Below are positions 6,654 to 64,000 of a stretch of 64,000 bases of DNA, one piece after another. The position numbers and the translations under genes were made by a program. The notes beneath the pieces were generated by a model. It did no database searches. It had not been told where the DNA came from and saw only the letters and a list, made by a program, of their open reading frames with translations. Every line of letters begins with the position of its first letter. Position 1 is the stretch's first letter. Origin of the DNA: Alphaproteobacteria bacterium (GTDB lineage Bacteria > Pseudomonadota > Alphaproteobacteria > JAWKYA01); NCBI GenBank assembly GCA_041396725.1, contig JAWKYA010000004.1:20019-84018 (forward strand). Direction: 5' to 3'.

Positions 6654-8261
6654 ATGCCCATCATTCAGTCCACTCTTGACCTTAACTCTGAGAGCGCTCG
6701 GCAAAATGCGGCCAACATGGAGCAGCAGCTTGAAGTGTTGCGTAATAAGGTGCAAGCAATTCAACAAGGGGGAGGGCCTCAGGCACGGGAAAAGCACTTA
6801 AATCGTGGAAAACTCCTACCGCGCGATCGGATTATCCGATTGCTTGATGATGGGTCTCCCTTCTTGGAGATTGGACAGCTTGCAGCGACAGGGATGTATA
6901 GGGATGAAGTTCCTTCTGCAGGATTAATATGCGGTATTGGCCGCATCGCTGGTGTGGAGTGTATGATCGTTGTTAACGATGCAACGGTCAAAGGTGGGAC
7001 CTACTATCCACTGACAGTCAAAAAGCATCTGCGCGCCCAGGAAATAGCTGCAGAGAACCATTTACCATGCATCTATCTCGTGGACTCCGGTGGTGCTAAT
7101 TTACCGAATCAAGATGAGGTTTTTCCCGATCGTGATCACTTCGGTCGAATTTTCTATAATCAAGCGCGGATGTCAGCCATGGGGATCCCGCAAATTGCTG
7201 TGGTAATGGGGTCATGCACGGCAGGGGGTGCGTATGTTCCTGCAATGTCAGATGAAGCAATTATCGTCAGAGAACAGGGGACAATTTTTTTAGGTGGACC
7301 ACCGCTCGTTAAGGCTGCAACAGGAGAGGTGGTGTCTGCAGAAGAGCTTGGAGGTGCTGAAGTTCATACAAAGATCAGCGGTGTGGCGGATCATTATGCA
7401 CTCAATGATGAACATGCTTTAGTTATGGCTCGAAAAATTGTTGGGCATCTCAATCGGAAAAAACTTAAACCCGTTAATGTAAGCACGCCCGTTGAACCAC
7501 ATTATGCCTCGAAAGATATTTACAGCATCGTTCCATCTGAGTTTAGAACTCCTTACGATGTTCGCGAAGTTATTGCACGCATAGTTGATGGCTCGGAATT
7601 TGATGAGTTTAAAGTAAATTACGGAACGACTTTAGTGACAGGATTCGCACGAATCTATGGCCATCCCATTGGCATTATTGCCAATAATGGAATTTTATTT
7701 TCGGAATCGGCGCTCAAAGGTGCGCATTTTGTTGAGCTGTGTTGTCAGCGAAATATCCCCTTGATCTTTCTACAAAACATCATGGGATTCATGGTCGGCC
7801 GTAAATACGAGGCAGGAGGTATTGCTAAGGATGGCGCTAAGATGGTGATGGCTGTCGCCTGTGCAAATGTACCTAAGTTGACAGTCGTTATTGGTGGATC
7901 TTTTGGCGCTGGGAATTATGGAATGTGCGGACGCGCTTATCAGCCGCGGTTTATGTGGATGTGGCCAAATGCACGCATCGGCGTCATGGGGGGTGAGCAG
8001 GCAGCCAATGTTCTTGCAACTATTCGGCGTGATGCTACTGAGGCACGAGGTGAGATCTGGTCAGGTGACGAAGAAAGGAATTTTAAGGAACCTATTCAGC
8101 GACAGTTTGAGATTCAATCGGATCCCTATTATGCAACAGCTCGCTTATGGGATGATGGTATTATTGATCCAGCTGAAACACGAAAAGTACTCGGCCTTAG
8201 CCTTGCTGTAACTCTAAATGCACCGATAGAACAAACGCGCTTTGGCGCATTTCGCATGTAG
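6654..8261 (+). CDS. liuB: 3-methylcrotonyl-CoA carboxylase beta (carboxyltransferase) subunit
   Basis: [55 protein letters not shown]. Confidence 0.95.
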
Positions 8262-54585: not shown

Positions 54586-55278
54586 TTATCCTGTAAGAGC
54601 GAGATGTTCAGCCATAATAAAGGGTGTATCTCGGTTAGCTTGATGAAAGAGGGCGACCGCATCCACTCTTAAAGGTCTATCTGCGATCGGCTCAACAATC
54701 GGAGCAATACCTTCAAGAATTTGAGCGCGATCGCCCGCGTCCAATCTCTGAGTCAGCGTCATATGAAAATGAAAATGCTCCATCACATAAGGATAGCCAA
54801 ATTTAACAAGCAGCTCATCCTCACGCTCTGATAGTCCTGCAGATCGTCGCTCTATTAACTCTTCCTCTGTTAATTCAGCTCGGAATGGTTCAAAAAATTC
54901 AACGGCGGATTGAGCTAGATGCGCCATTTGTGGACACGGCTCGATAAAGGTTAAGGCAAGAAAGCCATCGATAGAACGTAATTTCAGTGCTGGCGCCGTA
55001 AAGGGAGTCTCACTTGCGGCGAAAGCGGCAAAGGCTAATTTCAATGCAGCAGCATCTTGACCTTCAGCTAAGCGAAAGGGTGCTTTTAAGGTTGCATGAA
55101 AGCCGTAGTGTCGCGGCCCCGATGTCACCGTATATAAATGTTCAGGCCCCACGTCAGGTAAGCGCATTTGTCGGACAGACTTATCGCTAATAGTGTCGCG
55201 TCCTAAAAAAGAAGCTCCAAATTCGGCAAGTGGGCTACCCACCTTGGGGGCATAGTAAATAGCATAGCGACTACTCAT
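54586..55278 (-). CDS. DUF1045 phosphonate-metabolism-associated protein (2H-phosphoesterase-like)
   Basis: From ATG 55278: RYAIYYAP, PRHYGFHATLKAPF, GYPYV..HFHFHMTLT (two HxT motifs). Confidence 0.85.
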   Translation of the reverse strand: MSSRYAIYYAPKVGSPLAEFGASFLGRDTISDKSVRQMRLPDVGPEHLYTVTSGPRHYGFHATLKAPFRLAEGQDAAALKLAFAAFAASETPFTAPALKLRSIDGFLALTFIEPCPQMAHLAQSAVEFFEPFRAELTEEELIERRSAGLSEREDELLVKFGYPYVMEHFHFHMTLTQRLDAGDRAQILEGIAPIVEPIADRPLRVDAVALFHQANRDTPFIMAEHLALTG

Positions 55279-55300
55279 ATTTTTTCTTATCTCATTTTTT

Positions 55301-56446
55301 CTAGGCGACGCGCGATCCGTGCCGCCAAACTTCCTTGATAACGGGAATTTGGTCAATGATTCGCACACGCAGGAGATCCGCCCTTTGCCCAAGAGCGAGT
55401 GATCCACGATCACCCAATCCGGCTAAATGAGCCGGCGTAGAAGTAGCGGTAGCGATGGCTTGGGGAAGAGAGAGATTTCCTTGCCAGTGCAGGATAAAAG
55501 CACCATGAAGAAGGCTGACAGGCATATAGTCAGATGATAGGGCGCTTAAAAGACCTTGCTGAGCTAGGTCGAGTGCGGCCACATTCCCTGAATGGGATCC
55601 TCCACGGACAAGGTTTGGGGCGCCGGCGATTGTGGCCATACCGTGGCTGTAGGCAGCCTTAGCTGCAGTAATTGAGGTTGGGAACTCGCTAATGGTAATA
55701 CCAAGTGCCTTAGCCTCGTCAATATGGTCAGGAGTAGTATCATCGTGGCTAGCAACAGCAATACCATGTTGGCACGCGGCTTGGGCGATTATTTTTCGAT
55801 TAGGCGCTGCATAGCGCGCCTGTAATTCTTGGGCACGCGCGATAAAGTCATCAAGATCATCGGTATGCATGCCTGCTGCGGGACCATAGGTTTTCCGATA
55901 TCGCTCAAGATCGGCAAATTGTCGTTGTCCAGGCGTATGATCCATGATTGAAACCAAACGTATAAAATTATTTGTGCAGAGTTCAAGAAATAGACCACCC
56001 ACATCAGGATCGCCAATCTCACATCGGACATGAATATAATGATTGGCACGGAAAATTTCTGAACGCTGTGCCTGATAAATTCCATCAAGAATCTTGGAAA
56101 AGACAGTTGGTCGGCCTAAATCATTTACGGAACTTCCGATACGAATAGCATCAAGAACTGTTGTGATGCCTGATGTTGCTACCTGTGCATCGTGAGCGAG
56201 AAGGGCAGGCACAACCGGCCATTCAACGCCAGGCCGTGGTCGGATATATTTTTCAAGATTATCTGTATGAATCTCAACCAACCCAGGCAGAAGATAATCA
56301 CCCTCCATATCAAGTGCCGATATGAGATGGGTTTTATCTGATTGGATATCCTCAATTGCTCCTTCCGAAATAACTAGTGATCCAAGAAAAACTTGGTCGG
56401 GAGTGACAATCTGTGCATTGGTAAAAAGGGTTTGTTTGCGGGTCAT
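55301..56446 (-). CDS. phnM: PhnM-family amidohydrolase (alpha-D-ribose 1-methylphosphonate 5-triphosphate diphosphatase)
   Basis: LLPGLVEIHTDNLE, SGITTV.DA, MDHTPGQRQF, ASHDD, SEFP, GAPNLVRGGSHSGN, LSSDY. ATG 56446 preferred. Confidence 0.9.
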   Translation of the reverse strand: MTRKQTLFTNAQIVTPDQVFLGSLVISEGAIEDIQSDKTHLISALDMEGDYLLPGLVEIHTDNLEKYIRPRPGVEWPVVPALLAHDAQVATSGITTVLDAIRIGSSVNDLGRPTVFSKILDGIYQAQRSEIFRANHYIHVRCEIGDPDVGGLFLELCTNNFIRLVSIMDHTPGQRQFADLERYRKTYGPAAGMHTDDLDDFIARAQELQARYAAPNRKIIAQAACQHGIAVASHDDTTPDHIDEAKALGITISEFPTSITAAKAAYSHGMATIAGAPNLVRGGSHSGNVAALDLAQQGLLSALSSDYMPVSLLHGAFILHWQGNLSLPQAIATATSTPAHLAGLGDRGSLALGQRADLLRVRIIDQIPVIKEVWRHGSRVA

Positions 56447-56451
56447 GTTTG

Positions 56452-56481
56452 AAAATAAAAAAGCCATGCTTTGGCATAGCT
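56452..56481 (-). terminator. Probable intrinsic terminator of hsp20
   Basis: On the - strand AGCTATGC-CAAA-GCATGGCT followed by TTTTTTATTTT. The stem's single mismatch is a U-G pair only on this strand. Confidence 0.6.
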
Positions 56482-56546
56482 TTTCGATCTTAACCATGCA
56501 AGGGTGAATTAAGTATTCAAAAAGATTTTATAAGAAGGACGTATGG

Positions 56547-58633: not shown

Positions 58634-59581
58634 ATGATGTGGTTTAAAAGGCGGAACCGACGGGATTTTTTGCGTGCAACAGCGCAAGGAATATCGTTTA
58701 CGGCATTGGCAGCAACCTTCCCAAAGGCCTCACGAAGCGCACTTCTTGCACGTCCGATCATGATCGGAGGAAGAGATACGCTCGAAGAACAGCTTCTAAC
58801 AACGCTGACAATCCAATTGTTGAACCAAGCGGGTATTCCAACGCAGCATGTTCCGGGCCTTGATACATTGACATTACGCCGGCGTCTTGAAGAGGGAACC
58901 ATTGATCTTTATTGGGAGTTCACGTGGGTCGGTCTTTCCGTTCATAATGGTGTACAAGAGCGCTTGAAGTCCTATGAAACCTATGATGCGGTAACCGCTC
59001 TTGATAGTCGTCGAGGGATTGTTTGGCTGGATCCTGCGCGTGTTAATCTTGCACCTACTCTAGGTGTAAGGCGAGAGCTTGTAGAAGCGACAGGTGTCAC
59101 AGGAATAAGCGATCTTGCGGAGATCGTCGCTAAGATTACCTTGCATCCGCTAACGATTGCGATTGCCGATAATTTTCGTGCGGATGCCAAAGATGGATTT
59201 ATTGCTTTACAACGCGCTTATGGATTTAAATGGCCTTCGGATGCGGTATTGGCGTTAGGAAATCGCTCGGTTTATGATGTTTTGAGATTGAAGCAGGCGG
59301 ATGTAGGAATTGTGCAGAGAACAAAGCCCTATATAATTACGTATAATCTCGTGGCGCTTGAGGATGAGCGTGAATTTTTCTTACCGTATGTTCTAGCGCC
59401 TGTGATGCGTCAGTCGCTTGCTCAAGAGCAGTTGCTGTTAATTGAGAAATTAAATGCTCTCGCAAAACTTATAGATGATCGATCTATGCGTCAGCTATCT
59501 GCGGCTATAGATGGAAAAGAAAATTCAATGAATGAAGTTACAGAGAATTTCTTGAAAACGACAGGATTAATAAAGAGTTAG
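58634..59581 (+). CDS. Glycine betaine/choline-family (OsmX/OpuAC-like) ABC substrate-binding protein with twin-arginine signal
   Basis: NRRDFLR Tat motif; EEQLL..L..QLL..AG, GTIDLYWEFT, VWLDPA, LEDEREFF.PY...PV.R. Confidence 0.7.
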   Translation: MMWFKRRNRRDFLRATAQGISFTALAATFPKASRSALLARPIMIGGRDTLEEQLLTTLTIQLLNQAGIPTQHVPGLDTLTLRRRLEEGTIDLYWEFTWVGLSVHNGVQERLKSYETYDAVTALDSRRGIVWLDPARVNLAPTLGVRRELVEATGVTGISDLAEIVAKITLHPLTIAIADNFRADAKDGFIALQRAYGFKWPSDAVLALGNRSVYDVLRLKQADVGIVQRTKPYIITYNLVALEDEREFFLPYVLAPVMRQSLAQEQLLLIEKLNALAKLIDDRSMRQLSAAIDGKENSMNEVTENFLKTTGLIKS

Positions 59582-59591
59582 AGTCCTCAGA

Positions 59592-60218
59592 TCAGTCATT
59601 AGCAAGCTCTTTTAATTTTGCTTCTAAAGCCGTGATAAGACCTTGAAATCCTTGCCGATCAAGAACGGCGACATATTGTGAGCGTTTTTCTGCCAGCTGA
59701 CTGATTGTTCCTTTTAAAAACACATCAACGACACGCCAGTTTTGTTCCGAATCCTGCATCATCAAATAAACAATCTCGACTGGATCGTCGCCCGGTTTTC
59801 CAATTGTTGTTTTGACAAGGCGAGAACCGCGTTCGCTCTCAGTTTCACCTAAAATTGTAAATTTTTGCCCACTATAACCGCTAAAGCGGGTTGCATACTC
59901 TGCAGCCGTAAATTGCGAAAATATATCTTTTAAATGCGTTCGCTGGTTTTCATTTAAATTTGCCCAATAACGTCCCACGGCAACCTGTGCCATTCGAGGA
60001 AGATCAAAGGTTCGTGTAACAACTGGCGCTAAAAGATCATAACGGCCGCGAAAATGTAAAGTTTTAGCATTCTGCATAGCCTGAAGGAGGGTTTGATGCA
60101 AACCGTCGATAACCTGTGAGGGAGAGGCTTGCTGAGCAGTAGCTGTATTCGCTATAAGCACCGCAGCGGCGAGGCCGAGTAGGCAATGCTTCGCCAATTG
60201 AGCAAGGCGGTGAATCAT
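59592..60218 (-). CDS. hpnM: HpnM/MlaC (Ttg2D) family lipid-binding periplasmic protein
   Basis: Signal peptide, LAPVVTRTFDLPRMAQVAVG..W, YATRF..YSG, WRVVDV...G.ISQLA..RSQY; near hpnA. Confidence 0.75.
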   Translation of the reverse strand: MIHRLAQLAKHCLLGLAAAVLIANTATAQQASPSQVIDGLHQTLLQAMQNAKTLHFRGRYDLLAPVVTRTFDLPRMAQVAVGRYWANLNENQRTHLKDIFSQFTAAEYATRFSGYSGQKFTILGETESERGSRLVKTTIGKPGDDPVEIVYLMMQDSEQNWRVVDVFLKGTISQLAEKRSQYVAVLDRQGFQGLITALEAKLKELAND

Positions 60219-60451
60219 TCATATCTCTCCTTGAGGTAGCGATCTTCGACATTCGAACAGAATCGCACCAACACTAACTTTGTATTTGGCCTAAACGCTT
60301 ATGGCAAATAACGTGAATAATCGATGAATTGTATATGGATTACCTCAACCTATTTCATGTAAAGAAACCTTTGTTCTGCAACCTGTGCTGTACCATCAGC
60401 CTTTTATACGCACCCGCCCTTTAAGATCAATACAAGTGATTAAAGATTGAT

Positions 60452-61705
60452 ATGACCCGAGTCCCTCTCAAAGTAGCCGTTCTTGTGGATTTGGAGCGGA
60501 CTCCAATAGCAGGAGGGCATGTGAAGTGCTGGGAACGCCTAGCCGAGGCTGCGGTATCTATGCCGGATTCCCTAGACTTAACAGTCTATTTCCTGGGTCA
60601 GAAAATAGAACAGATTAATTTCGGACCAAACGTACGATTTAGGCTACTAACCCCTATCCTAGGAACGCGACAATTTATCTTCCTCAGGAGGACCGCAGAT
60701 CATACGGATCTTGCGTGGTTTCATGGCATTCTAGCACAAGAGCTTTGGCAGTATGATGTTATTCATACAACAGACACATTTGCCTTTGCGCAAACTGCCA
60801 TACGCCATCGCAAAAAAAATAAAACGGTCCTCGTCGCGTCCTTACACACAGATCTTATTCGATTTACTCGTATTTATAGTGAAAAAATTCTGCTAGATAT
60901 CTTTGGTAAAGGAAGATTGGGGCGGTTTTTTATCCAGACTCTTAGTATTCCGGACTATGTAACGCGCCGCGCCGAGCGCCGCCTAACAAGCTTTTTAAAC
61001 CATTGCGATTATATTTTAGCGTCCTCACGAGAGGATACTTTACGTTTGCAGAAGATTTTTCCTCCTTCTAGGTTTGGCTACCTTCGGCGGGGAATAGATA
61101 AAGAAAGATTCCACCCAAAACACCGCGACAGAGTATGGTTGAATTCGGTATACGGAATACCTCCAGGAGTACCGGTTTTACTTTTTGTCGGCCGTGTCGA
61201 TGAGAGTAAGGGGGTCATGATTTTGGCCGAAGCGGCCAAGAATCTAATCGATTCGGGAATATCTGTGCATGTGATGATTTGCGGAAAAGGGGATCGAGCC
61301 GATACCATTAAGGCCTTATTAGAATCAAATGTGACTCTAACAGGATCCTTAGCTCAAGAGGATCTTGCGCGCATCTATGCAACTTGTGATTTATTTATTT
61401 TCCCATCCGCAAGCGATCTTGCCCCCAATGTTGTTATTGAGGCAAAGACCTCTGGGCTAGTGCCGATCGTTGCCGCAGGGGATGGCGGTGCTCAATTTGT
61501 GCGGGATAATATTGATGGTGTGGTAGAAAACTCTCGTGAAGCTATAGTATGGGCGGGGCGGATTCGTTCGATCATTGAAAATGATAAAATCTGAGCGAAT
61601 TATAGTCGAGCCGCGCGTCTCTGGGCAGAGCAAATCTGGCCATCATGGACTGAAGTCCTGCAGCAAGATCTTTTATCTGTATGGCAGAATCTTGTGCGGA
61701 ACTAA
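60452..61705 (+). CDS. Glycosyltransferase family 4 (GT-B) protein; in-frame TGA at 61592-61594 followed by a further 36 codons in the same frame
   Basis: GGHVKCWERLA, HTDL..F, RRGIDKERFHP, LLFVGRVDESKG, CDLFIFPS.SD..PNVVIEAK.SGL. After the TGA: ANYSRAARLWAEQIWPSWTEVLQQDL..W, stop at 61703-61705. Confidence 0.85.
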
Positions 61706-61717
61706 GCGTATTTATCG

Positions 61718-62938
61718 TTGAGTTATTATAGGTTTCCCGGCATTCTCCGTGGTAACAAGATACAGGGGCTACTGGGGCTTAGACGACGAATGGCATTCAT
61801 ATCATGGGCGCAGGCTGTTGATACTGTTAAACTTTTACCACAAGGCGGACCTGCATGTTGTAATGTGTCGGTAACGAATCTATGCAATGCGACGTGTGAT
61901 TTTTGCGGCTATGCAAAAGATAAACAGAATGTCACAAAAGATAATCGCGCTTTTATCGATGCTAAATTAGCCATAAAAGCTTTTGATATATTATTCAAAA
62001 AAGGTGTTCGATATTTGACATTCTCGGGAGGAGAGCCACTCCTTCATCCGCAATTATTTTCTATGGCACAGGCCGCGACGCATAAGGGTATGCGAGTTGC
62101 TATTGTCACAAATGGCTCGACCCTTATACAACGCAATATCGATCGAATTATTACGAGCGGTGTTCGTACAGTTTTTATATCAATTGATTCCCCACATGCA
62201 GAAGCACACGAAGCGAATAGAGGTCTTGCAGGTGTATTTGAACGCATAGAAGTAGCTGTTGGGAAACTTCGCGCCGCAGATATAAGAGTTATTGCTTCTG
62301 TAACAATTAATCGACTAATCGATGACTTTGATGCTTTAGCTAAGCGGCTTAAAGAATTAGGTTTTGAAACAGTAACTTTTACTTATCCAAAAACGACTCT
62401 TAGCTCAACGTCGCTTGTTTATTCGGAAGATAGCCGATTAATCGATTTTACGCCGGATGAGCTAATTGAGCGTCTTCGCCAAGTTCGCAATATGAAGGAT
62501 AATCAGGAGGGATTGGGAATCTTAAATCCAAAAGCAGCCCTCGAAGAAATGATACGACATGTGCGGCGCGAGCGCGAACTTTTCCCGTGCGTCGGAGGAA
62601 GTAATTATTTCTTCATGGATTGGAATTTTAATATATTTCGATGTGATTATTGGTTTGAGCCGATTTGCAAAGTATGGGATTTTGCTACAGCTCTACCGAT
62701 AAAAGATGGATGCACTCAGTGCATGTCGGTTTGCTATCGCGATGCAAGTGCGCTGATGGGGCTTCCTATTGCTATAGGAGAGACGATCGGGCACTTACAA
62801 AGAGGCCGTTTTCGCGATGCAGGGAAGGCTCTATTTGGGCAAACAGCACGCGCTTCTGCAAAGGCTCTGTGGCAAGAATGGCGTACCATCAATAAATTGG
62901 CACGTACGGGACGACATCGTGTACAAGAAGTACCGTAA
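61718..62938 (+). CDS. Radical SAM enzyme with Cys-rich C-terminal Twitch/SPASM-like domain (alternative start ATG 61790)
   Basis: CNATCDFC (CxxxCxxC), FSGGEPLLHP, IVTNGS, ISIDS; C-terminal CVGG..RC..IC..GCTQCMSVC. Confidence 0.9.
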   Translation: MSYYRFPGILRGNKIQGLLGLRRRMAFISWAQAVDTVKLLPQGGPACCNVSVTNLCNATCDFCGYAKDKQNVTKDNRAFIDAKLAIKAFDILFKKGVRYLTFSGGEPLLHPQLFSMAQAATHKGMRVAIVTNGSTLIQRNIDRIITSGVRTVFISIDSPHAEAHEANRGLAGVFERIEVAVGKLRAADIRVIASVTINRLIDDFDALAKRLKELGFETVTFTYPKTTLSSTSLVYSEDSRLIDFTPDELIERLRQVRNMKDNQEGLGILNPKAALEEMIRHVRRERELFPCVGGSNYFFMDWNFNIFRCDYWFEPICKVWDFATALPIKDGCTQCMSVCYRDASALMGLPIAIGETIGHLQRGRFRDAGKALFGQTARASAKALWQEWRTINKLARTGRHRVQEVP

Positions 62939-62949
62939 TGAATGTTAGC

Positions 62950-63975
62950 TTAATCGATTGTTCCGGGTGGCACGCGGTCTAGGTACTTATTTTCAATGAA
63001 CCAGGTAATGGCGTCTTGAATAGCTTCGCGTGCAGGGCGAGGTGCATAACCGAGTTCACGCTGTGCGCGATCGATTTTAAAGTACATTAACTTGCGTGCT
63101 TGCTTAACGCCGGCAACAGTTGCAAAGGGCTCTTCTTTTCTACCAGATAATCTCGCCCAGAACTCAGCAGCATATGCTATAGGCAATACCACATTATGAT
63201 TCAGTTCAATCTTGGGAGGAGAGCGTCCTACCATTTGTGCAATTGTGGTTAGTAGTTCGCGTAAGGATAGGTTTTCTCCTCCAAGAATATATCGCCGCCC
63301 AATTTGGCCTTTTGCAAAGGCTATAAGGTGGCCTGCGGCAACATCGTCAACGTGCGCAAAATTTAAGCCAGTATTCACAAAGGCCGGCATGCGCCCGGCG
63401 GCTGCTTCGACAATCATACGGCCAGTAGGCGTTGGCTTGATATCGCGCGGGCCAATAGGCGTTGATGGGTTAACTATAATGGCTGGCAGCCCTTCGCTTG
63501 CAACCATATTGCGGACGACCTCTTCAGCCATATACTTTGATCGCTTGTAATCGCCGATCATGTCGCTCAGCTGGACAGGGGTATTTTCGTCTGCAGGTGT
63601 ACCATCTTTATTGAGGCCCAGAACAGCAACACTTGAGGTATAAACGATACGCGAGATACCTGCTGCGAGAGCGGCACGCATAAGATTTCGTGTACCCTCC
63701 ACATTATTAAGGTAGATTTCTTGAGGATTCCGTGCCCATAGCCGATAATCGGCAGCAACATGATAAAGGGCAGAACAATCCTTTGTTGCAGATCGCAAGC
63801 TCGCGGGATCACTAAGATCGCCGCGGACGATTTCTATATCTTTGAGGCCAGTTAAATTTGTAAGCGGGCTATTAGCGCGAAGGAAGACTCGCACAAAGTG
63901 ATCCTGTGCAAGAAGGTGGCGTAACACAGACGATCCAACAAAGCCACTCGCACCAGTCAATAAGATAGTCATCAA
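62950..63975 (-). CDS. hpnA: Hopanoid-associated sugar epimerase (NAD-dependent, extended SDR)
   Basis: ILLTGASGFVGS, YHVAADYRLWA, VYTSSVAVLG, YKRSK, NPSTPIGPRDIKPTPTGRMIVEAAAGRMPAFVNTGLN - a characteristic HpnA signature. Confidence 0.9.
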   Translation of the reverse strand: MMTILLTGASGFVGSSVLRHLLAQDHFVRVFLRANSPLTNLTGLKDIEIVRGDLSDPASLRSATKDCSALYHVAADYRLWARNPQEIYLNNVEGTRNLMRAALAAGISRIVYTSSVAVLGLNKDGTPADENTPVQLSDMIGDYKRSKYMAEEVVRNMVASEGLPAIIVNPSTPIGPRDIKPTPTGRMIVEAAAGRMPAFVNTGLNFAHVDDVAAGHLIAFAKGQIGRRYILGGENLSLRELLTTIAQMVGRSPPKIELNHNVVLPIAYAAEFWARLSGRKEEPFATVAGVKQARKLMYFKIDRAQRELGYAPRPAREAIQDAITWFIENKYLDRVPPGTID

Positions 63976-64000
63976 TTTTTCCTAAGAAGAAGTTGCCTCG

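Follow-up and report, generated by a model that had tools for sequence, protein, structure and literature searches.

What do a glycosyltransferase and a radical S-adenosylmethionine (SAM) enzyme do between two hopanoid genes? The question is raised by a 64,000-nucleotide stretch of DNA (hereafter the window; contig JAWKYA010000004.1, positions 20,019 to 84,018) from an alphaproteobacterial metagenome-assembled genome (MAG; GCA_041396725.1), in which two plus-strand genes, one coding for a family 4 glycosyltransferase (GT4) and the other for a radical SAM enzyme of an unnamed family, are located between hpnM and hpnA at 59592-63975. Hopanoid side-chain structures serve as taxonomic and environmental biomarkers and, to our knowledge, many of them have no known genes, just as HpnA, HpnB, HpnL and HpnM have no known function. 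The original prediction, made from the sequence of the window, described the pair as a candidate for a new tailoring system of hopanoids or other lipids. The part of it that held is a glycosyltransferase combined with a B12-independent radical SAM enzyme, both linked to squalene-hopene cyclase (SHC) and to hpn genes; the undescribed head group found no support. The reading favoured here, which we consider reasonably probable, is that the two genes form a hopanoid head-group module not orthologous to the HpnI/HpnK/HpnJ branch.

Comparative genomics associates both families with hopanoid biosynthesis, through their co-occurrence with SHC, their synteny and their fusions. For the radical SAM family, 80 loci encoding relatives were fetched with 10-kb flanks, and the genomes behind the first 50 were searched for the SHC gene (shc). 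It was found over the cut-off in 44 of these 50 carrier genomes, or in 48 when four genomes with split copies are counted, and the two carriers in which it was not found are both incomplete MAGs. In a family-balanced sample of 401 Alphaproteobacteria (the class sample), 123 of which (31%) have shc, the radical SAM gene is present in five genomes, all five with shc (Fisher p = 0.003), corresponding to about 4% of the SHC-positive Alphaproteobacteria sampled. The GT4 family is larger (1335 proteins at E <= 1e-20), and SHC is encoded by 22 of its 24 carriers in the class sample (Fisher p = 2e-10), so that it reaches about 18% of the SHC-positive genomes. These statistics ignore shared ancestry, and many of the genomes are MAGs. 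Homologues sitting mostly in genomes without shc and away from hpn genes, which had been named among the outcomes that would refute the original prediction, are the opposite of what was seen, with SHC co-occurrence near-complete and hpn genes often adjacent.

Genes of the hpn type were found as neighbours at 39 of the 80 radical SAM loci, at 38 of those 39 within 3 kb; genes in the fetched loci were chosen by codon-position GC content, and the gene calls are approximate. HpnL, whose identity was checked on one representative (TIGR03476, 233 bits versus a cut-off of 196), is located within 3 kb at 26 loci, in most cases immediately preceding the radical SAM gene in the same orientation. At about 12 loci it is the GT4 gene that stands directly upstream of the radical SAM gene. 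HpnA occurs near the latter at 8-9 of the 80 loci, and HpnI-like, HpnK, HpnN, HpnM, shc and HpnJ genes at others; in the cyanobacterial loci it is accompanied by an HpnI-like gene, by HpnK or by both. Protein fusions are found as well. Protein P0298, present in at least three assemblies, is an HpnA-like short-chain dehydrogenase/reductase (SDR) fused to the radical SAM domain, and P0252 is a genuine HpnJ (692 bits) fused to the same domain, possibly through a lost stop codon since it is known from a single record. At locus L097 a single strand carries hpnN, the radical SAM gene, a second radical SAM gene of the B12 type and an HpnI-like gene, and at L027 a second HpnJ copy is directly upstream of the radical SAM gene. 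Taken together, the fusions and the adjacencies at L097 and L027 suggest that the enzyme works alongside HpnJ and the SDR rather than duplicating HpnJ.

The GT4 gene has ties of its own to hopanoid genes. Its orthologue adjoins hpnM in the nearest relative of the window, a complete uncultured Rhodospirillales genome of the same genus (L006), as well as in L099 and L100, where it is located within core hpn clusters beside hpnM and without a radical SAM gene. It adjoins HpnL or HpnA in L090, L091, L092, L094 and L095, the neighbours being HpnL and an HpnA-type epimerase gene in Hypericibacter adhaerens (L091) and hpnA and hpnL in L094 and L095. In Roseospira marina and Rhodospirillum sp. A1_3_36 it overlaps or adjoins an HpnL-type gene, and in Nostoc its neighbour is a B12 radical SAM gene whose domains (PF02310, PF04055, PF13282) are those of HpnP. 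HpnL is found in every GT4-bearing radical SAM genome except the incomplete window assembly. Desulfobacterota possess operons with the order GT4, PIG-L deacetylase, radical SAM enzyme (L022, L025, L084), and the operon of L022 adjoins hpnN, hpnG, shc, hpnM, hpnH, hpnL and hpnA; a PIG-L gene is likewise found at locus L094, 3.4 kb from its hpnA, hpnL and GT4 genes.

The presence of the radical SAM gene goes along with that of a glycosyltransferase. When 51 radical SAM genomes were searched for HpnJ, HpnI, HpnK and GT4, 16 of them, including the window genome and its complete same-genus relative, were found to have GT4 and to lack HpnI, HpnJ and HpnK, and 34 to have HpnI or an HpnI-like protein, nearly all together with HpnJ and HpnK, and to lack GT4; GT4 and HpnI are found together in one genome, and there is no genome with neither. 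In the class sample, 55% of the SHC-positive genomes have neither GT4 nor HpnI. Searches for HpnI and HpnJ in the window genome and in the complete same-genus genome returned nothing. In the genomes searched, the radical SAM gene thus never occurs without a hopanoid glycosyltransferase, either GT4 or HpnI, which suggests that its step follows, or at least depends on, glycosylation.

The radical SAM gene itself occupies positions 61790-62938 on the plus strand and codes for a B12-independent enzyme of 382 aa. The original prediction had placed its start at 61718, where a TTG codon can open the reading frame, but the ATG at 61790 is the most likely start; as both the called gene and the family alignment begin there, the gene is separated from the GT4 frame by 84 nt and not by 12. 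PF04055 (77.9 bits versus a cut-off of 29.5) is the sole Pfam domain of the protein. Together with the CxxxCxxC motif CNATCDFC (C32/C36/C39 in the 382-aa numbering), which is invariant in an alignment of 26 family members, and the alternating beta/alpha elements of an AlphaFold2 model (predicted local distance difference test, pLDDT, 87.6; predicted template modelling score, pTM, 0.89), it assigns the protein to the radical SAM superfamily. Six C-terminal Cys residues had been pointed out earlier; all six are present in the window protein, and five of them (C267/C285/C308/C311/C315) are invariant across the 26-sequence alignment with the spacing C-x17-C-x22-C-x2-C-x3-C. As to the accompanying label "Twitch/SPASM", no Pfam SPASM match was obtained and the canonical seven-Cys spacing of SPASM is absent, and what speaks for the label is the Cys pattern, a beta-hairpin predicted at residues 273-284 between the first two invariant C-terminal Cys, and fold similarity only. 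As modelled, the C-terminal domain resembles a twitch or partial SPASM domain, twitch domains binding one auxiliary [4Fe-4S] cluster and full SPASM domains two.

Among solved structures, the best Foldseek match of the model is BlsE (7vob; template modelling (TM) score 0.56, 16% identity, core only), followed by SkfB, SuiB, DesII, viperin and anSME. A profile of the 26 members compared with PDB sequences also places BlsE first (88 bits over residues 30-191), ahead of SkfB, MoaA, viperin, DesII and BtrN (E = 8e-6 for BtrN). The analogy drawn earlier to BtrN and NeoN is reduced by these values to a weak fold-level resemblance, and assignment to the BlsE/BtrN type was rejected (TIGR04466, 72.8 bits versus 400; TM 0.56 and 16% identity). 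The expectation that the protein has no B12 domain and is not HpnH-like was borne out: a B12-binding domain is absent, and neither HpnH (TIGR03470, cut-off 225 bits) nor HpnJ, which has such a domain (TIGR03471, cut-off 577.6 bits), gave a match, the identity to the true HpnH of the cluster being 27% over the core. No other characterised family matched, a match of that kind having been named beforehand as refuting the original prediction; the best NCBIfam model is AhbD with 83 bits versus 500, over the core only. The family is small, a search of 1.84 billion 50%-identity clusters having yielded only 253 representatives at E <= 1e-30, and in a maximum-likelihood tree it splits deeply into two clades, clade I consisting of the window, Dongiaceae, Kiloniellales, Desulfobacterota and cyanobacteria and clade II of Acetobacteraceae-type loci with HpnL upstream together with Acidobacteria. 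The contigs behind loci L013 and L015, judging by their taxon labels, look like mis-binned Dongiaceae contigs.

The glycosyltransferase frame is located at 60452-61705 (plus strand), and matches to PF00534 (82.3 bits), PF13692 (79.3 bits) and PF13439 (37.9 bits) place its product in CAZy family GT4 with the GT-B fold. The acidic-x7-E motif reads D-LAPNVVI-EA, the first position being E or D in relatives. The best NCBIfam matches are all far under their cut-offs (TIGR04157, 69 bits; N-acetylglucosamine-phosphatidylglycerol (GlcNAc-PG) synthase, 63 bits; MshA, 62.5 bits). GpgS (NF053787, 63.1 bits versus 480) and MshA (TIGR03449, 62.5 bits versus 462.5) match over the C-terminal half only and were rejected, as was HpnI (TIGR03472, GT2 fold, cut-off 310 bits), for which there was no match.

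Several known systems resemble the pair in part. In the HpnI/HpnK/HpnJ branch of Burkholderia cenocepacia, bacteriohopanetetrol (BHT) is converted into BHT-GlcNAc, then into BHT-glucosamine (BHT-GlcN) and finally into BHT cyclitol ether (BHT-CE) (PMC12583986, PMC13459092). Common to both are the location in hopanoid clusters, the combination of a glycosyltransferase with a radical SAM enzyme, a deacetylase between them in some lineages and the association with HpnL. The gene order GT4, PIG-L, radical SAM mirrors HpnI, HpnK, HpnJ, yet none of the three is orthologous to its counterpart: the glycosyltransferase is of the GT-B/GT4 and not the GT2 type, the deacetylase, where present, is PIG-L and not YdjC-type like HpnK, and the radical SAM enzyme, unlike HpnJ, is about 370 aa long, lacks a B12-binding domain and carries five Cys in its C-terminal domain.

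A second likeness is to lipid-modifying gene sets. The gpgSDF set of Pseudomonas aeruginosa (GpgS/GpgD/GpgF) combines a GT4 enzyme, a deacetylase and a UPF0104 flippase and yields GlcN-phosphatidylglycerol (PMC12713373). The window-type GT4 shares with GpgSDF and with HexSDF of Clostridioides difficile (PMC10128005) the partnership with a UPF0104/AglD2-type flippase-like protein (the HpnL type) and, in some operons, a de-N-acetylase, the shared logic being the addition of GlcNAc to a lipid, deacetylation and flipping. The context here is hopanoid rather than phospholipid and further includes a radical SAM enzyme and HpnA, and the GT4 protein is not GpgS since the GlcNAc-PG synthase model gives 63 bits versus 480. 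On the radical SAM side, BlsE (7vob), DesII (8hzv) and BtrN (4m7t) are likewise B12-independent and carry a Cys-bearing C-terminal extension after a partial TIM barrel; these twitch-type, sugar- or cyclitol-modifying enzymes are the best sequence and fold matches among solved structures. They differ in that the alignment covers the core only, the Cys spacing is not the same and their substrates are soluble nucleoside-linked sugars or aminocyclitols instead of lipid-linked ones. Finally, calditol synthase (Cds) of Sulfolobus acidocaldarius, a radical SAM enzyme forming the carbocyclic head group on archaeal tetraether lipids (PMC13459092), is similar by functional analogy only, as a radical SAM enzyme converting a lipid-linked sugar into a cyclitol-type head group; in a control search of S. 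acidocaldarius the HpnJ model, and not the radical SAM family of the window, gave a signal.

From these comparisons a putative order of steps can be drawn up. HpnH, HpnG and the products of other cluster genes would supply BHT. GT4, in place of HpnI, which is absent in this lineage, would use a nucleotide sugar to glycosylate BHT at the cytoplasmic face with a sugar of the hexosamine type, most probably GlcNAc, and PIG-L, where present (in the Desulfobacterota operons and at one alphaproteobacterial locus), would de-N-acetylate the sugar. The radical SAM enzyme would then fill the slot of HpnJ, abstracting hydrogen from the lipid-linked sugar and remodelling it with the use of a C-terminal auxiliary Fe-S site, with HpnA or an HpnA-like SDR as its likely redox partner and HpnL, a UPF0104 flippase-like protein, as the usual membrane partner of GT4. 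BlsE, DesII and BtrN begin by hydrogen abstraction from a sugar or cyclitol carbon, which fits such a role in head-group tailoring.

The identity of the acceptor and of the donor sugar is inferred, as is the radical chemistry, and any specific radical reaction can be put forward only tentatively. For genomes without hpnJ, formation of an HpnJ-like carbocycle (a cyclitol ether) by the radical SAM enzyme is possible, though distinctly short of probable; other tailoring (oxidation, epimerisation, deamination or rearrangement) leading to a different head group is slightly the likelier of the two and still stays below an even chance, the remainder falling to something else. Where HpnJ coexists with the enzyme, a different step is favoured, such as oxidation, epimerisation with the SDR partner, deamination or rearrangement. 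That the family as a whole constitutes a second, B12-independent route by which lipid-linked (amino)sugars are turned into head groups that are carbocyclic or rearranged in some other way seems doubtful to us.

A number of observations weigh against a hopanoid head-group module. About half of the 80 radical SAM loci, mostly from Acidobacteria, have no hpn neighbours, and the fusion protein P0258 described below shows, as far as its domain composition goes, that the radical SAM family could also serve non-hopanoid head groups. Searches of the window assembly, which is only 65% complete, for HpnL, HpnK and PIG-L found none of them. The distribution of GT4 and HpnI among radical SAM genomes amounts to only about three independent lineage contrasts on the tree, and a general exclusivity of GT4 and HpnI in SHC-positive genomes was rejected (four genomes with both versus 6.6 expected, p = 0.21). 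HpnJ coexists with the radical SAM gene in 34 of the 35 HpnI-bearing genomes, sometimes in one operon (L097, L027), so in such genomes the enzyme is not a simple replacement of HpnJ. Chelatococcus reniformis (L035, clade II), in which HpnL is followed by the radical SAM gene, contains 1.4% adenosylhopane, 44.7% BHT, 1.5% BHT-GlcNAc and 52.4% BHT-CE (PMC12583986 Table S6), and no novel product is seen in it, the hopanoids listed for standard culture summing to 100%. It is the only named radical SAM carrier spotted among the 54 strains of that study, and its lipid data hold no BHPD isomers, BHpentol or unsaturated hopanoids (PMC12583986). Lastly, a premature stop truncates the GT4 gene in the present assembly, a sign of either a possibly inactive module or a possible error in the base call.

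This truncation leads to the first of the alternatives, namely that the module is non-functional in this organism, the GT4 gene being a pseudogene and the nearby ispH broken too, which is possible, although we lean clearly against it. The GT4 frame had been taken to read through to 61705, and the in-frame TGA at 61592-61594 (plus strand, read directly from the codon) was overlooked; the genome search also flags "1 TGA" within the GT4 match. The TGA stands 37 codons before the normal end of the gene, in a tail conserved across the family. After it, however, the frame stays open for these 37 codons up to the TAA at 61703-61705, and the motif AR.WAE..WPSW..VL..DLL..W encoded past the TGA is conserved in 12 relatives. 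The relatives are 417-460 aa long, the normal length for the window gene being 417 aa, and L006 has TTG (Leu) at the codon matching the TGA. Given the conserved tail and the Leu in L006, the TGA is therefore a recent nonsense mutation or an assembly error. Recoding of TGA, as selenocysteine or in a variant code, was rejected, as the neighbouring genes are long and intact under table 11 and L006 has Leu.

As for ispH (L005:8000-8918, contig C4 85.9-86.9 kb, about 2 kb past the window), it is split by small indels into three frame pieces and is intact in the same-genus L006, and a search of the 65%-complete assembly for a second copy found none. The split fits either a low-quality assembly or local decay and, if real, would make a pseudogene of an essential gene of the methylerythritol phosphate (MEP) pathway; a broken single-copy ispH in a 65%-complete MAG indicates assembly errors at least as much as decay. 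Decay is further opposed by the identity to L006, 73% for GT4 and 83% for the radical SAM protein, with 64%-90% for other genes of the cluster, by the retention of every invariant radical SAM residue, and by the intact pair in L006, a complete genome.

According to the second alternative, the products are known ones and only the enzymes are non-orthologous: the pair would be a B12-independent route to BHT-glucosamine and BHT cyclitol ether, in which GT4 stands for HpnI, PIG-L or another deacetylase for HpnK and the radical SAM enzyme for HpnJ. We regard this as rather unlikely. It agrees with the absence of HpnI, HpnJ and HpnK from all 16 GT4-bearing radical SAM genomes, with the Desulfobacterota gene order, which tracks the known order of reactions, with the B12-binding domain being present in HpnJ and missing from the radical SAM enzyme, and with C. 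reniformis, the only cultured carrier with lipid data, which makes mainly BHT-CE and nothing unusual. It would also account for species producing such lipids with no detectable hpnI/J/K, namely Rhodospirillum rubrum (1.7% BHT-CE) and Skermanella aerolata (15.6% BHT-GlcN and 10.9% BHpentol-CE) (PMC12583986). On the other hand, the coexistence with HpnJ in 34 of 35 HpnI-bearing genomes, including the L097 operon, the second copy at L027 and one fusion, suggests distinct steps, only three of the 24 GT4 carriers of the class sample have the radical SAM gene, and the likeness between the enzyme and HpnJ ends at the radical SAM core.

The third alternative, that the pair modifies another membrane lipid (an aminoglycolipid of the GlcN-phosphatidylglycerol type or a polyprenyl-linked sugar) and is linked to hopanoid genes merely via shared envelope stress adaptation, is improbable: it can draw on weak GT4 matches to GlcNAc-PG synthase (63 bits) and MGlcDAG synthase, on GT4, deacetylase and UPF0104 flippase being a proven phospholipid-modifying set, on radical SAM members fused or adjacent to CDP-alcohol phosphatidyltransferases (P0258, L041, L079), on phosphatases beside the radical SAM gene in Acidobacteria (L042, L057, L078) and on one Terriglobales locus adjoining lipid A genes, but it runs against the near-complete SHC co-occurrence of both families relative to the 31% background, the repeated embedding in core hpn clusters beside HpnL, HpnA, HpnM, HpnI, HpnK and HpnN, and the distance of the GlcNAc-PG synthase match from its cut-off of 480.

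Under the favoured reading as a hopanoid head-group module, statistics and synteny add two unnamed families, both tied to HpnL and HpnA, to the hopanoid gene set. In the literature searched, which extends to 2026, no paper naming either family in hopanoid biosynthesis was found. A 2026 review lists HpnH, HpnJ, HpnP and HpnR as the only hopanoid radical SAM enzymes (PMC13459092), and a 2025 survey of Alphaproteobacteria, which sought additional candidates around hpn clusters and found none, leaves the CE-type hopanoids of species without hpnIJK unexplained (PMC12583986); a 2025 microsynteny preprint highlights hpnL, hpnM, hpnS and hpnT. If GT4 replaces HpnI, the gene-based prediction of producers of glycosylated and cyclitol-ether hopanoids is currently incomplete. 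Should the second, B12-independent route be real, it would together with GT4, HpnL and HpnA make up a hopanoid head-group pathway fully independent of HpnI/J/K and would explain the cyclitol-ether-type hopanoids of Rhodospirillales lacking hpnI/J/K, such as R. rubrum and S. aerolata. HpnL and HpnA would gain long-missing roles, as a flippase and a redox partner respectively, and the CDP-alcohol phosphatidyltransferase fusions would apply the same chemistry to phospholipid head groups. The carriers include cultivable bacteria. Dongia sedimenti R-7 and Dongia soli possess GT4, the radical SAM gene, hpnL and hpnA but no hpnIJK, whereas Chelatococcus reniformis DSM 105737, Roseicella aquatilis and Azospirillum canadense have hpnIJK in addition to an hpnL that is followed by the radical SAM gene.

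With regard to the locus, open reading frame listing and hidden Markov model scans confirmed four genes at 59592-63975: hpnM, GT4, radical SAM and hpnA. The hpnM gene (59592-60218, minus strand; TIGR03481, 205.3 bits versus a cut-off of 160.1; PF05494, 132.6 bits) codes for an MlaC-like hopanoid-associated periplasmic lipid-binding protein and is divergent from GT4, from which it is separated by an intergenic region of 233 nt read from the sequence (60219-60451). The hpnA gene (62950-63975, minus strand; TIGR03466, 472.1 bits versus 367.65) codes for the hopanoid-associated SDR annotated as a "sugar epimerase" and is convergent with the radical SAM gene, lying 11 nt after the stop that ends at 62938. 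Both flanking proteins score above curated TIGRFAM cut-offs and are genuine family members. The original prediction of a two-gene plus-strand unit between hpnM and hpnA on the opposite strand, ending 11 nt short of the latter, is in this way upheld by TIGR03481 and TIGR03466, and its expectation of hpn genes and shc past position 64000 proved right: beyond the window end there are two DUF6134 genes, ispH, hpnH (552 bits; L005:8967-10157), hpnG, shc (761 bits), hpnE, hpnD, hpnB and hpnC, the genes of the full hpn cluster from hpnM through hpnC being located within 15 kb. A promoter and terminator scan of 59500-64000, including the hpnM-GT4 intergenic region, found sites no commoner than in shuffled sequence. 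The source assembly, to whose contig C4 the window belongs, has a size of 1.62 Mb.

The two DUF6134 genes are tandem paralogues located between hpnA and ispH (L005:6124-6969 and 7014-7724; PF19630, 51 and 97 bits), and the tandem pair inside the hpn cluster is also kept in L006.

Among the wider radical SAM family, P0258, from a cluster of eight sequences, consists of the radical SAM domain fused to a CDP-alcohol phosphatidyltransferase, paralleling the gene adjacency in the Binataceae-type loci L041 (10001-13374) and L079 (10001-13300), where two radical SAM paralogues flank a nucleotidyltransferase/CDP-alcohol phosphatidyltransferase gene (DIPPS/PIP-synthase-like). Such adjacency and fusion hint at a phosphate-linked cyclitol or sugar head group. 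Radical SAM-transferase proteins are also found in other metagenomes (P0258, P0394-P0400). In Acidobacteria (L042, L057, L078) genes for a PTP-like/dual-specificity phosphatase (PF22741) and a PF04185 phosphoesterase come after the radical SAM gene in the same orientation, a three-gene set that recurs without hpn neighbours.

Genomes with Acetobacteraceae-type loci (L034, L037, L040, L044, L046, L047 and others) hold two to three HpnL paralogues: one belongs to an hpnI-J-K-L operon, and a second immediately precedes the radical SAM gene. At 12 loci the gene next after the radical SAM gene is one for "amino acid synthesis" (PF06684, 244 bits). In a Microcoleus MAG (L019:6077-8350) two tandem radical SAM copies have a B12-binding radical SAM gene on one side and hpnK on the other, and shc and hpnB are found at a distance of 5-8 kb.

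HpnL, which is of the LPG-synthase-TM type, may provide a link to acylated hopanoids. In Hypericibacter terrae, the cultured sister species of H. adhaerens, fatty-acyl-BHT is dominant (80%) (PMC12583986 Table S6), and the 17-kb locus L091 of H. adhaerens carries no radical SAM gene.

Next to hpnM, a gene for an OpuAC-type glycine-betaine substrate-binding protein (58634-59581, plus strand; PF04069, 105 bits) ends 10 nt from the hpnM 3' end in convergent orientation, an arrangement repeated in L006. Elsewhere in the window, minus-strand open reading frames are located at 55301-56497 and 54586-55413.

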